DNA of 64,000 nucleotides from Octopus vulgaris (Eukaryota). A program made the position numbers and the translations under genes. The DNA lies in NCBI GenBank assembly GCA_951406725.2, contig OX597830.1, forward strand, positions 40,052,001 through 40,116,000, read 5' to 3'. Below are positions 3,528 to 63,290 of the stretch, in pieces (position 1 is the first letter of the stretch; every line of letters begins with the position of its first letter). A model generated the notes under the pieces. The model was given only the letters and a program-made list of their open reading frames with translations, was not told where the DNA came from and did no database searches.

Positions 3528-3774
3528 GACGGTCTGTGAAGAAACATCTACGAAAATGCCAGATCCGAGAGTCCAAAGTGCATATCAGCGCAACACAGCC
3601 GCAACTGGGGCAGCCTTAGAATCTCCGCAGCCATATTAATACATCAACGGAAGCCGATTATCAACATCAGAAGAGAGTTACATGAAGCTAGCTGGTAGCT
3701 TGTTATAACAACAACTTTCTGCGCGTGTCTACTCTCCACATACTCACACACATGCAGATCTGCAACATTCGCTA

Positions 3775-3812
3775 ATTCCTGAGGAGAAGATTATAACCCC
3801 GAAATATTGAAT
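3775..3812 (+). ncRNA. Minimal type I hammerhead-like motif (decayed stem II)
   Basis: attc-CTGAGGA-gaagattataacccc-GAAA-ta-TT-gaat; stem I attc/gaat, palindromic stem III (aatatt); stem II mostly unpaired. Confidence 0.5.
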
Positions 3813-12619: not shown

Positions 12620-12868
12620 CAGTAGCCGATTCTTTTGGTCAAACTATCGTATCTCCACCTCCTTCGGATAAAAATTGTCTACCTTCGAAACGCGGAGTAA
12701 GAAACCGGGACAGCTGATGAAGGGAATGTTCTTTGTGTTGCATGTCTCGTTTTTCTATTTGTTTCTTTCGTTGTTCGAAAAAAAGTTTGTTTTCTATGTT
12801 TTTGTTTCTATGTTCTCGTTTTTCATTTTGTTCACGTTTTTTTTATGTCCTGTACCCATATATGCATG
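12620..12868 (+). mobile_element. TA-associated repeat with reversed-order hammerhead-like motifs (copy a)
   Basis: cttcGAAAcgcggagTA...gacagCTGATGAaggg (12683-12724); ends tcctgtacccatatatgcat like copies c and d. Confidence 0.6.
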
Positions 12869-30787: not shown

Positions 30788-31206
30788 TATATAAAGGATG
30801 TGTGCGTATACATACATATATCCTCTCATAGCTCTTCCTCCTAGCGTTCATAATAATTTTTCTATCGTCTTGGCTTAACAACCCTCACCGTTTGTTTTTA
30901 CTGTCTTGTTCTCACTGCCCTGCTCTTGTTACCACTTATATCCTCTGCAAAAAATCCCAAATTTTATTTAATTTGCTATGCGGGAAGAGCTGTTTCAACG
31001 AAGTCGCGTATTGCCCTTACCTTCGAACGCGGAGTAGATGTGCATATGTATATACGTTTATATGTATATGTATGTATATATACATATATATATATATATA
31101 GATATAGAGAGAGAGAGAGAGAGAGTTACATACATACGTACATACATACATACATACATACATACATACATACATACATACATACATACATACATACATA
31201 CATACA

Positions 31207-31682: not shown

Positions 31683-32469
31683 AGGAGTGGCTGTGTAGTA
31701 AGAAGCTTGCTTCCCGACCACATGGTTCCGGATTAAGTCCCACTGCGTGGCACCTTGAGCAAGTTTCTTCTCCTATAGCCTCGGGCCCACCGAAGCTTTG
31801 TGAGTGGATTTGGTAGACGGAAACTGAAAGAAGTTTATATTTAGCAGAGTGGTGCATGTATATGAGTGCATGTTTGTATGTGTGTGTGCGTGTGATTTGT
31901 ATTTGTCACAGTGGTGTGTGTGCACATGTGTATGTATGTGTTTGTTCGTGTGTGTGTATTCCACGTCTGTGTGTGTGCGTGTATATGTTTGTATGTGTTG
32001 GTGGGGATGGTATGTGGATGCACATGAGTATGTGCGTGTGTGTCTGTCTGTGTATGTTTGTAGTGTTATAATTGCCCGGGTGATGTGTGTGTGCATCCGT
32101 ATGTGTGTGAGAGTGCATATGTATGTGTGTGAGAGTGTGAGTGTGTGTGAGTGTTGTATTTGGGGTACTTATTTTGTGCACAGAGATCTAGGTGGCCACT
32201 AAGTGGTATCTGTCATGTAATGGGGAACCCTCAGTTGTTGGCGGTGGACTGTCATCCTATATATATATATATATATATACATCCGGCCATCGATGGCCGG
32301 ATAACTGAAGAGATGGTGGCGTGGGTTTCCGCCCCGACATCCGAAACTCGGAGTTTTATCATAGCTACCGAATAATTGTCACATATTATATTTACAGATA
32401 AATTCCTCTATTTACATAATATCGAGGTCTCTTTCATTCTTTTGTTGTCTTACCATTCTATCAATATCA

Positions 32470-33379: not shown

Positions 33380-33700
33380 CAGCACTGAACAAGAGTTCAA
33401 TATGGCTTTCAGCTCTAAACGAAAATTGAAGATGAGCTTTTATGGAGAAATATATTTATTAACTTTGAGAGTTGCTGGTCATAAGCGCTGTTACTTTATA
33501 GCCCTTAACGTAGTTAATTTTCGAAGACCGAGTATTTTGATAAGCTTTTGCCGGAAGATCTTTCGAGGTTTCTAAAAACTGTTGATGCTGAATAAACCAC
33601 TCCTTAAATTTATTTTCAGTTAACCCAATATAATTTGTGGAAACTAAACTATCAGATGTAAATAGCTTTTGCACAATGAACTGTCGATCTCGAAAATGAA
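33380..33700 (-). pseudogene. Penelope-like GIY-YIG endonuclease remnant
   Basis: NYIGLTENKFKEWFIQHQQ matches PLE YIGxTExxFKxRxxxH. Confidence 0.7.
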
Positions 33701-33800
33701 TTATTTCATGAGCAATATGGCAGTCATATGAGCGGAAAGTTGCCTTTTGTTCCTGCTGTTGCTGTTGCTGTAGCTCTTTCCCAGCTTTGATCGAGTAGCC

Positions 33801-33913
33801 CAGTGGCTCCCAACCTTTTCGTGGTGGTTCCTAACAGTGGTTTCCAACCTTTTTACTTAATTGAGTTTTCCCACAGACCCCTTTTAATATGCTTATCCTT
33901 AGATAGATAGACG

Positions 33914-41507: not shown

Positions 41508-41860
41508 TTTTTTCTACTCTAGGCACAAGGCCCGAAACTTTGAGGGAGGGGCCAGTCGATTAGATCGATCCCAGTACACAACTGGTACTTAATTTATCGA
41601 CCCCGAAAGGATGAACGGCAATGTCGACCTCGGCGAAATTTGAACTCAGAACGTAAAGACAGACGAAATACCAATTTCTTTACTACCCACAAGGGGCTAA
41701 ACACAGAGAGGACAAACAAGGACAGACAAACAGATAAAGTCGATTATATCGACCCCAGTGCGTAGCTGGTACTTATTTAACCGACCCCGAAAGGATGAAA
41801 GGCAATGCCGACCTCGGCAGAATTTGAACTCAGAGCGTAAAGACAGACGAAATATCGTCT
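41508..41860 (-). mobile_element. SINE family C with a duplicated core
   Basis: Two tandem gtcgatta.atcga.cccagt...gaactcaga.cgtaaagacagacgaaata blocks. Confidence 0.8.
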
Positions 41861-41939
41861 GTCTCTTGTCCAAGCTTGGTTCTTCGCGTTCGCCACTTCA
41901 TCTCGTTTAGGCTTAACAGCCCTTCCTGTTTGTTTTCAC

Positions 41940-42245
41940 TATCCTGTTTTTGTTACCAATTTTGACACTCCGCAAAATCCCAAATTTTATTTAATTTGTT
42001 TTGCAGGAGCAACTGTTTTATCGAAGGTGTATCTTGTCGTTGAATTGCTCGAAATACGGATAAGAAAAACAGCTGACAACTGATGAAGGGTCGTTCGTTA
42101 TGTTACTTGTCTTGCTTTCCATTTGCTTCTTTCGTTGTTGCAAAAAAGTTCATATTCCATGTATTCGTATTTCGTATCTCATGTTTTCGCATTTTTTATG
42201 TTGTTTACGTTCCGTGACGTCCTGTGCCCACATATATATATGCAT
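41940..42245 (+). mobile_element. TA-associated repeat with reversed-order hammerhead-like motifs (copy c)
   Basis: Hairpin 41968-42009, gctcGAAAtacggaTA (42047-42062), gacaaCTGATGA (42075-42086). Confidence 0.65.
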
Positions 42246-42336
42246 AAACGTATAGATGTAAGTATCTACATATACGTATGTATATATGCTATAGCCTCGG
42301 GCCGACCAAAGCCTTGTGAGTGGATTTGGTAGACGG

Positions 42337-42380
<44 letters not shown>

Positions 42381-42849
42381 TATATGGCCGCAGTCAAATG
42401 ATGAAACAATATATATATATATATATATATTATTTATATTATTGTATATATTATATATATATTATTTATATTTTTATTTAATTGAACGCCACGTATCCAT
42501 TTCCAAGTAAGTTTATCTTAATCTTTTTGATGCGACTCTACTCTATACTGTTTTCTCCCCTATCCTCTCTAATCCCCTCCCTTTCACCGTTTTCTGTCTA
42601 TCTCTATATCTCCCTCTTTCTCTTTTTCTCTCTCTCTCTCTTTCTCGTTGCTCACACGTGACCATCCTTCACCTTTCTTTTCCTCACGTGACCATCTTTC
42701 TTGCCTGCACGGACATTCTAAGGACTGGATGTCTCCTATCTCTCTCTTCTATCTTTTCTATTTTCAAAAAAAATATTTCTCTCAGCGTTCACTATTTTCC
42801 CCTCGCTCAGGTGTAACGACCCTCGTTCGGTTTCCCTGTATGTCTCCAC

Positions 42850-43108
42850 TGTCCTGTTTTTGTTCCTAACTTTGACCCTCCATAAATCCCAAATTTTATT
42901 TTGGTATTTATGGGAGCAACTGTCTTCGAAAACTCATACAGTCGTTGATTGCTCGAAATAGGGAATAGATAGACAGCCGACAACTGATGAAGGTCATTCT
43001 TTGTATTACTTGTTCCTTTTTTCTCTCGTTATTTGCGTATTTAACTCATTTGTTTTCGTATTTCATGTTGTTTACTGTTGTTGACATCCTGTACCCATAT
43101 ATGCATAT
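42850..43108 (+). mobile_element. TA-associated repeat with reversed-order hammerhead-like motifs (copy d)
   Basis: Hairpin 42878-42916, gctcGAAA (42951-42958), gacaaCTGATGA (42979-42990); ends tcctgtacccatatatgcat. Confidence 0.65.
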
Positions 43109-55997: not shown

Positions 55998-56043
55998 CTC
56001 ACACTGAGGAACGGGTATACACTCAGAAACCATGGTCTGTGAG
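55998..56043 (+). ncRNA. Type I hammerhead ribozyme candidate (in TATA-HHR-AATAAA unit copy 2, ~55925-56200)
   Basis: ctcaca-CTGAGGA-a-c-gggt(atac)actc-a-GAAA-ccatgg-TC-tgtgag; 6-bp stem I, palindromic stem III, GUC site at 56035-56037. Confidence 0.75.
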
Positions 56044-57093: not shown

Positions 57094-57454
<361 letters not shown>

Positions 57455-62700: not shown

Positions 62701-63290
62701 AACAACAATTCAATAACCCACCTACTTGAACTGGCATATATACATCAAAATACCGAGAAAGATGTAAACGGTAATGAAAAACCCTCGATACGGCCACATC
62801 GTGCTAGTGGCAATAATAGGGATATAGCTAACACGGTAACAACGTCTGAAAATGAAGTCAGAACTGAGATATATACAACTAAATGTAATAAATGCGCATG
62901 CAGAGGAAAATCAAGATGTCCATTGATGAACATCTGTATGAGTATAAATCTTGTATATAAATGTGCTGTGGAGGAGCGTATGTTTACATTGGGGCAACGG
63001 CTGTGTCATTCAAGAATCGTTATCGCAACCATGTCACCAACTTCAAGAAAATCGACAAGGGGACATTCAACATCTTTGACCGATTTTGTGTGACGTTTAA
63101 GGAAGAAAAAATTAAGTATAACATAACTTGGTCCATAATAAGGCATGGAAAAAAATACAATATCATTTCCAGGAGATGCCGACTCTGCTGCGAGGAATCC
63201 TATGTCTATCAATGAGAAGATCATTAATAGAATTTCTGAAAGACTCTCAAGATGCTTACATGCATATAAATGCACTTTCGCACTTGCAGT
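62701..63290 (+). pseudogene. Penelope-like element GIY-YIG endonuclease (frameshifted)
   Basis: CACRGKSRCPLMNICMSINLVYKC / YVYIGATAVSFKNRYRNH...YNITWSIIRHGKKYNIISRRCRLCCEE / INRISERLSRCLH; the typical PLE CxCR..CPL..C..VY, YIG, CxLCxxE and NxRSExxSxCRH motifs. Confidence 0.9.

Follow-up and report, generated by a model that had tools for sequence, protein, structure and literature searches.

A predicted hammerhead ribozyme with rearranged block order, split at A9/G10.1, in a high-copy repeat of Octopus vulgaris

Introduction

The DNA stretch analysed here (64 kb of Octopus vulgaris, hereafter the window) is AT-rich and dense in microsatellites, and it contains a repeat family in which the hammerhead core letters GAAA stand before CUGAUGA. 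The question raised by this locus is whether such letters can belong to a hammerhead ribozyme and, if so, how the strands of its stems are connected.

According to the nomenclature of Eckert et al. (2023, PMC10085705) hammerheads are built of three blocks: block C, consisting of a stem I strand, CUGAnGA and a stem II strand; block G, consisting of a stem II strand, GAAA and a stem III strand; and block S, consisting of a stem III strand, UH and a stem I strand. Block C was assumed there to be uninterruptible. In vitro cleavage is documented for the non-circular SGC and CSG forms, which require all four stems; the natural ribozymes of these two types are slow (0.004-0.13 per min). In the accessible parts of that paper, SGC is reported only from metatranscriptomes and CSG only from metagenomes (two sequences), and the genomes of known organisms yielded none except one GCS candidate (PMC10085705).

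Naiads are Penelope-like elements which insert in (TA)n and are reported to be without canonical hammerheads (Craig et al. 2021, PMC8557442). They are among the most abundant retroelements of invertebrates, and the missing hammerhead was taken to mean that the ribozyme may be dispensable or parasitic. Eight Naiad families were flagged HHR_half_core, with the second half of the core 35-50 nt off on either side; the half cores were left unexplained, and no structure is given for them in the accessible parts of the paper (PMC8557442).

Copies of the repeat in the window

Four copies (a, b, c and d) are present where the earlier note, a reading of the letters alone, had put them, and their positions were confirmed (Table 1). 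Two profile searches of the 64 kb gave no fifth copy, with one stray match at E 0.34. Copies c and d, which run in the same direction 904 nt apart with microsatellite between them, are 77% alike across 186 bases in pairwise alignment. Copy b aligns to the 5' part and copy a to the 3' part of the family; the best local match of copy a to copy b begins at 12674, as if copy a started precisely at the cut site predicted below, but the upstream part of copy a also aligns weakly with the 5' part of copy c (score 31, reached in 7 of 500 shuffles). The order GAAA before CUGAUGA-AGG, which had been claimed for the whole family, was found in a, c and d; it does not hold in b, in which one A of GAAA is lost and the 3' half, from before CUGAUGA onwards, is gone.

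Table 1. Features of copy c and copies of the repeat family in the window
Feature	Position	Strand	Description
Helix IV, 5' strand	41964..41969	+	Pairs with 42087-42092 directly after CUGAUGA; 5/6 pairs in c
Hairpin V	41970..42006	+	41970-76 with 42000-06; 6/7 pairs in c
Stem II, 5' strand	42007..42012	+	Pairs with 42045-42050, 6/6; G10.1 = 42007, C11.1 = 42050
Joining helix	42013..42019	+	Pairs with 42066-42072, 7/7; ties far ends of stems II and I
Block S	42028..42039	+	Stem III 3' strand 42028-32, H17 = 42033, stem I 3' strand 42034-39
Block G	42045..42058	+	Stem II 3' strand, GAAA (G12 = 42051), stem III 5' strand 42054-58
Split block C	42074..42086	+	Stem I 5' strand 42074-79, CUGAUGA 42080-86; without stem II strand
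Copy c	41964..42092	+	Complete predicted rearranged hammerhead; sole window copy passing the full descriptor
Copy c tail	42087..42235	+	Helix IV 3' strand, U-rich stretch, 3'-end motif 42220-35, TA-rich microsatellite
Copy d	42873..43102	+	Layout as in c; decayed; 3'-end motif 43087-43102
Copy b	30838..31038	+	5' part only; ends before C block; TA-type microsatellite on both sides
Copy a	12675..12863	+	3' part; GAAA 12687-90; CUGAUGA 12714-20; 3'-end motif 12848-63

Copy d retains hairpin V (8/8 pairs), stem II (6/6) and the joining helix (6/6) together with decayed stems III (3/5) and I (4/6). Copy b forms V (5/5), II (4/4) and III (6/6) with letters that differ from those of c on both strands, and copy a forms stem I (6/6, two of the pairs G-U) without an intact S block or a stem II 5' strand. 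Since a, b and d are decayed or cut off, copy c is the only candidate for activity in the window. The 3'-end motif common to a, c and d lies 134, 140 and 103 bases, respectively, past the first C of CUGAUGA. A TA-type microsatellite was found directly 3' of a, b and c, and 5' of b and d; this context is weak evidence alone, as such repeats abound in the window and copy d has no long run after it. Directly 5' of copy c there is a tandem pair of short interspersed repeats (41554-41670 and 41738-41854), which we take to be a cephalopod SINE and which apparently interrupts the upstream part of this copy.

Predicted fold of copy c

The pairing potential computed for copy c comprised six helices with 37 pairs and five crossings. 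Stem I has 6 bp, stem II 6 bp, of which G10.1-C11.1 is the first, and stem III 5 bp. The core nucleotides (C3-A9, G12-A15.1, U16.1 and H17) each adjoin the strand they require, and the closing pairs G10.1-C11.1 (42007-42050) and A15.1-U16.1 (42054-42032) are both present, U16.1 being 42032 and H17 being C42033. A hammerhead core with its flanking stems I-III is thus contained in c and not in the decayed copies a, b and d. The blocks of c follow one another in the order S-G-C, the linker from stem I to stem II is 5 nt long, and stem II takes its 5' strand from 73 bases upstream of CUGAUGA.

Hairpin V follows directly on the 5' strand of helix IV and runs directly into G10.1, with no gap at either border. 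Three helices, IV, V and II, therefore meet the A9-G12 face of the core without an unpaired base, and a four-way junction closed by IV and V is predicted at A9/G10.1. Helices IV and V would stack on each other, and stem II, as in other hammerheads, on the A9-G12 pair. The cleavage triplet that suits both stem I and stem III is found upstream of GAAA (U42032, C42033), so that the predicted cut, again by analogy with hammerheads, would fall at 42033|42034. The motif is accordingly predicted to be a hammerhead with rearranged block order, a new variant split at A9/G10.1.

Most of what had been read from the letters beforehand fits this fold. The helices gagcaa/ttgctc, ctgtttt/aaaacag and ttgtcg/tgacaa pair in c (6/6, 7/7 and 6/6 with one G-U), as do ctgtct/agacag in d (6/6) and gaag/cttc in b (4/4), and the upstream hairpin shows two-sided changes between c and d. 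The crossing of the first helix with the other two was borne out, and the second and third cross each other as well. Two helices had been missed, namely stem III (42028-32/42054-58) and the closing helix (41964-69/42087-92). The analysis also supports the proposal that a TA-microsatellite-associated element ends in a permuted hammerhead, and the observation that no canonical type I, II or III could be folded agrees with the five crossings, the non-circular order and the lack of an Rfam hammerhead match. The further options of a switchable hammerhead or a new ribozyme-like fold are unnecessary, because a hammerhead accounts for every core nucleotide and for stems I-III.

The Rfam search of copy c gave four weak unrelated matches and no hammerhead. 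The whole window gave none at gathering scores, in a search that also missed four canonical-looking minimal hammerheads present there, and among the 474 window matches at E up to 5 the best 150 were all noise of the microRNA and lncRNA type driven by microsatellites. The nested folding energy of copy c is unremarkable (z -0.20); nested folding recovers hairpin V and only parts of the other helices, and five crossings are beyond what a nested-only program can score.

Copies b, c and d hardly differ in the loop of hairpin V (41978-41998), which in the DNA runs belongs to the parts with the deepest coverage. A small inner hairpin can form within this loop, and a protein may bind there. Two other candidates were tried and rejected: a second core (GAAG/GAAA at 42023-26 with UA at 42062), for which there is no second CUGAnGA and which is absent from the Naiad examples examined, and back-splicing joining A9 to G10.1, the AG preceding 42007 being a minority allele.

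Shuffles and family-wide letters

A descriptor of the copy c layout was used at three levels of strictness, the loosest of which comprised stems I and III. Both strands of the window were scanned, and only copy c was matched. Dinucleotide shuffling of the window (300 shuffles, 5822 CUGAnGA sites) gave 7 matches at the loosest level and 0 at the two stricter levels, while local shuffling of 41900-42110 with GAAA and CUGAUGA held fixed gave 159, 4 and 0 matches in 20000 at rising strictness; these numbers flatter the layout, because the descriptor was written after copy c had been seen.

The letters of the family provide a test which is independent of the descriptor shuffles and stronger. Three DNA runs were compared with copy c at 80% likeness, and 4033, 3669 and 2984 contigs were obtained, which shows a very high copy number. 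Four of the 37 pairs in c are non-Watson-Crick, and in all three runs the family majority letter turns every one of them into a Watson-Crick pair: C at 41967 (97-98%), which completes helix IV, G at 42005 (75-81%), which completes hairpin V, C at 42028 (76-84%) and C at 42074 (86-90%). In stem I, the co-variants T at 42038 (55-79%) and A at its partner 42075 (36-48%) preserve pairing. Stem III shows a two-sided change between c (UGUAU/AUACG) and b (UCGCGU/ACGCGG), and a second subfamily carries G at 42056 and A at 42057 (21-26%), with the partner strand changed to match in copy d and in the loose-end consensus of 97 RNA reads. Among the window copies two-sided changes were found in stems II and III, in hairpin V and in the joining helix.

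Among the best-supported 40 of 185 variant rows there is no variant in U16.1, GAAA or CUGAUGA, whereas the stems vary, and H17 (42033) changes only from C to A, which is still H. The same 40 rows contain variants at 41964 and 41965 (20-49%), which would break the two outer pairs of helix IV unless their partners change among the remaining rows.

RNA reads and pattern scans

A search of sequencing runs listed no RNA run as a carrier of the repeat. About 6% of RNA run X21 was read; the 672 reads obtained run in both orientations and derive for the most part from other copies, 459 of them being less than 90% alike. In these reads there was no pile-up of ends at 42033/42034, and the sole pile-up listed consisted of 5 molecules at 42037. 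The reads of this run neither show nor exclude cleavage, short-read cDNA being poor for such ends, and they were taken as evidence neither of cleavage nor of transcription at these loci. C11.1 (42050) reads U in 89 of 169 RNA reads, compared with 3-5% of the DNA depth; most simply this reflects one well-expressed older copy, and RNA editing may also be considered. Opposite-strand joints at 41944/42070 (44 reads) and 42069/42101 (27 reads) were seen in RNA reads only, and they may stem from transcripts that contain pseudo-LTR copies in inverted orientation, or from a template switch at the fold.

Pattern scans for relatives gave one match in genomes and none in viruses; in metagenomes a first scan gave 0 matches and a later one 2, which were judged to be chance.

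Relation to Naiad elements

Contexts of core words in File S5 of PMC8557442 were judged by eye on consensus sequences, without statistics. Among words not interrupted by a line end, the survey covered CTGATGA places 1-55 of 62, CTGACGA 23/23, CTGAGGA 25/25 and, of the CTGAAGA sites, those in CCTGAAGA (8/8); the counts are lower bounds. The order and junction of copy c were found near the 3' ends of at least 11 of 54 Naiad consensi, with unrelated stem letters; by eye, these 11 amount to about eight independent sequence types. In Naiad_Amil the helices IV, V, II, joining, III and I have 8, 6, 6, 10, 12 and 6 pairs, and all 48 of 48 are formed; Naiad_Anas and Naiad_Aacu are near-identical to it, the latter with three mismatches. 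Naiad_Obim and Naiad_Ovul have IV 5/6, V 7/8, II 6, joining 5, III 5 and I 6. The layout is also present in four more of these consensi, in Naiad_Bfor, with stem I of only 2 pairs and a U-U at the junction, and, decayed, in Naiad_Esco. Another small departure among these examples is an unpaired base before G10.1 in one of them.

A plain type CSG with the joining helix was seen in at least six other Naiad consensi, namely the nematode families Naiad-1, -2 and -3_Nbra and three further ones. Six further sequences with core words near the 3' ends could be assigned to neither form by eye, and among the matches examined in the bivalve part of File S5 neither the split-C nor the CSG form was found.

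Four 12-13-letter words of the window family gave 0 matches in the Naiad files of PMC8557442, and this family is therefore not one of the Naiad families published there. In the window copies CUGAUGA lies 103-140 nt before the 3'-end motif, which compares with the position of the Naiad half cores near the 3' end. A Naiad would be expected to have an ORF with an N-terminal GIY-YIG endonuclease, a CxC motif and a C-terminal RT, and pseudo-LTRs arranged around it in tandem or inverted. Neither a reverse transcriptase nor an endonuclease gene was found next to any copy in a scan of 80 of 219 open stretches, none of which was above the Pfam cut-off. At 33462-33830 (-) and 62701-63090 (+), decayed GIY-YIG endonuclease-like pieces were recognised by eye, with no Pfam match at E 0.01; their YIGLTEN-type and Cys-rich motifs are presumably those of canonical Penelope-like GIY-YIG.

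The repeat is likely to be the 3' tail (pseudo-LTR) of a Naiad-type Penelope-like retroelement. It is well supported by the shared layout that the window motif would work like the Naiad tail motif. The window family itself is likely a Naiad, and a non-autonomous derivative is equally possible. As the layout was found in the tails of Naiads reported without a normal hammerhead, it is likely to be the candidate for their missing ribozyme.

Alternative explanations

Chance complementarity in a decayed AT-rich repeat is scarcely credible. The unremarkable nested folding energy and the descriptor made after copy c had been seen would speak for it, but it is largely refuted by the shuffle tests, the family majority letters and the independent Naiad examples. 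Very improbable, too, is the model of the earlier note, a type-II-like or nested hammerhead, possibly a dimer, with stem III formed as GAAA-N...N'-UA and cut after UA at 42062 and 12699. Its two pairs do exist in a, c and d, and Penelope elements commonly have a minimal stem III that depends on dimer formation (Cervera and de la Pena 2014, PMC4209133). The pair beside GAAA is correct as letters (C..G in a, U..A in c and d), yet it fails family-wide: 42062 is T in 91-92% of contigs of the three DNA runs and 42061 is G or T, giving U-G or U-U, so that the family majority keeps neither the pairing of the N' base nor the two-pair stem. The bases after UA pair with 42013-19, a strand which does not adjoin CUGAUGA and is followed by no CUGAnGA, and the cut after UA was rejected. 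Moreover, the loops are not palindromic, and no such UA occurs in the Naiad examples examined.

The post-CUGAUGA bases deserve a closer look, since they could themselves form stem II in a plain type SGC with one bulged A, the upstream strands then making a competing off-switch fold. Skipping this A gives 4 consecutive pairs in c and 3 in a, and Penelope hammerheads typically have a bulged base at 9/10.1 (PMC4209133). However, SGC calls for a stem II strand 1-2 nt after CUGAnGA, whereas the best such strand of c lies upstream (42007-12), and the downstream alternative falls to 2 pairs in d; half of its pairs in c are G-U, against 6/6 Watson-Crick pairs with the upstream strand. By eye, in Naiad examples (Acropora; File S5 parts 9, 19 and one of 12) the post-core bases cannot pair with the strand preceding GAAA and pair over 5-8 bp with the strand preceding hairpin V. 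A plain SGC is on these grounds quite unlikely. A conserved fold of non-catalytic function, such as a protein-binding or reverse-transcription signal in which the hammerhead letters are a relic, is unlikely as well, though not to the same degree. It would agree with the lack of RNA ends at the predicted site, the frequent U11.1 in RNA reads, the slowness of natural SGC and CSG ribozymes (PMC10085705) and the putative nature of the split A9/G10.1 step. Against it, the core letters are invariant among the best-supported variant rows while the stems vary, and a complete core recurs, by eye, across distant Naiad families; short-read cDNA shows such ends poorly, and most of the reads come from other, older copies.

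Proposed mechanism and meaning

The explanation which we consider probable as a whole is that of a Naiad-type tail carrying a self-cleaving, non-circularly permuted hammerhead, in which block C is rejoined via a four-way junction. More confidence attaches to the fold than to its activity or to membership of the Naiads. The core would fold as in other hammerheads, with G12 as the base and the 2'-OH of G8 as the acid (mechanism according to PMC11300833), and the two helix stacks, IV/V and II/core, would exchange strands at the A9/G10.1 step. That the backbone between 9 and 10.1 tolerates this detour may be inferred from Penelope hammerheads, which conserve an extra base there (PMC4209133). The active site would be complete only after CUGAUGA and the 3' strand of helix IV are transcribed. 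The cut between 42033 and 42034 would then be made by a monomer, a dimer not being needed because stem III is long enough in comparison with the minimal Penelope hammerheads.

The role of the ribozyme may be to cut unit-length RNA from tandem or read-through transcripts, as has been proposed for Penelope hammerheads (PMC4209133). After the cut, helices II, III and IV together with the joining helix would keep hold of both product ends, a situation favourable to religation or to the formation of circles. As to its origin, the motif is most simply pictured as a member of the C-S-G cycle in which two helices were inserted at 9/10.1 and the chain ends were moved into helix IV, and the CSG form of the nematode families would be a simpler relative of the split-C form.

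It is tempting to go further, with rather less assurance but still on the side of belief, and to propose that a hammerhead topology outside the six three-block permutations is, together with the nematode CSG form, the ribozyme of many Naiads, from comb jellies and corals to cephalopods, and that permuted forms are common in animal genomes. If this is true, the gap left by the missing Naiad hammerhead would be closed and the reading of the ribozyme as possibly dispensable or parasitic would be reversed; non-circular permutations, so far RNAs of metatranscriptomes, would be found in animal genomes, and there in very many copies. The assumption of an uninterruptible CUGAnGA block would be broken, and a whole class would therefore escape the ribozyme searches now in use. 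With strands exchanged a single step away from the active site, the fold would offer a handle for ribozyme engineering and structure work, and the rearranged model gives an exact predicted cut site.

Comparison with known hammerheads

In the literature searched, outside which most subscription journals lie, neither a structure for the Naiad half cores nor a hammerhead split at A9/G10.1 was found, nor any assay or solved structure of a junction of this kind. The accessible parts of PMC3088659, PMC6155905, PMC10162972, PMC13725137 and bioRxiv 10.64898/2026.07.22.740005 describe other hammerhead variants only.

Ordinary counterparts of the rearranged motif, of the Penelope type, are present in the window as four minimal type I hammerheads that look canonical by eye (3774-3812 +, 32300-32361 +, 56000-56041 + and 57152-57195 -). 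They consist of CUGAnGA, stem II, GAAA and a short palindromic stem III, and all are below the Rfam gathering score. Weinberg et al. 2015 is reportedly the work cited for hammerhead variants with extra helices.

The minimal type I hammerheads of Penelope elements (Cervera and de la Pena 2014, PMC4209133), in which an unpaired base is conserved between 9 and 10.1, share with the window motif a core located in the pseudo-LTR, the G10.1-C11.1 pair and an insertion between 9 and 10.1. They have C-G-S order, a stem III of 1-2 bp with a palindromic loop, and they need a dimer; the window motif differs in inserting two helices, in its non-circular order and in a stem III of 5-6 bp. The pseudoknot (pistol-like) hammerhead PDB 8YDC (Zhan et al. 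2024, PMC11300833) resembles it in the altered connectivity of helix II and in having an extra helix. In that structure A9 runs into G10.1 and the pseudoknot replaces the outer helix II, and its description, in the accessible parts of the paper, contains no four-way junction and no S-G-C order, unlike the window motif.

As in the SGC and CSG types (HRIMA-1, PMC10085705), a fourth helix ties the far ends of stems I and II (the 'I' interaction), and core helices cross. With SGC in particular the motif shares the S-G-C order, full conservation of the core and a short linker between stems I and II (typically 3 nt there, 5 in c); unlike SGC, copy c has a split block C with the stem II strand 73 nt upstream and the extra helices IV and V. 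Unlike either type as described there, the window motif is a high-copy genomic repeat of an animal. The published Naiads (PMC8557442) differ from the window copies, which have no attached ORF and whose family stands outside the published consensi, and agree with them in being flanked by (TA)n, in carrying the motif about 100-140 nt from the 3' end and, in Naiad_Obim, Naiad_Ovul, Naiad_Amil and others read by eye, in the same layout of six helices.
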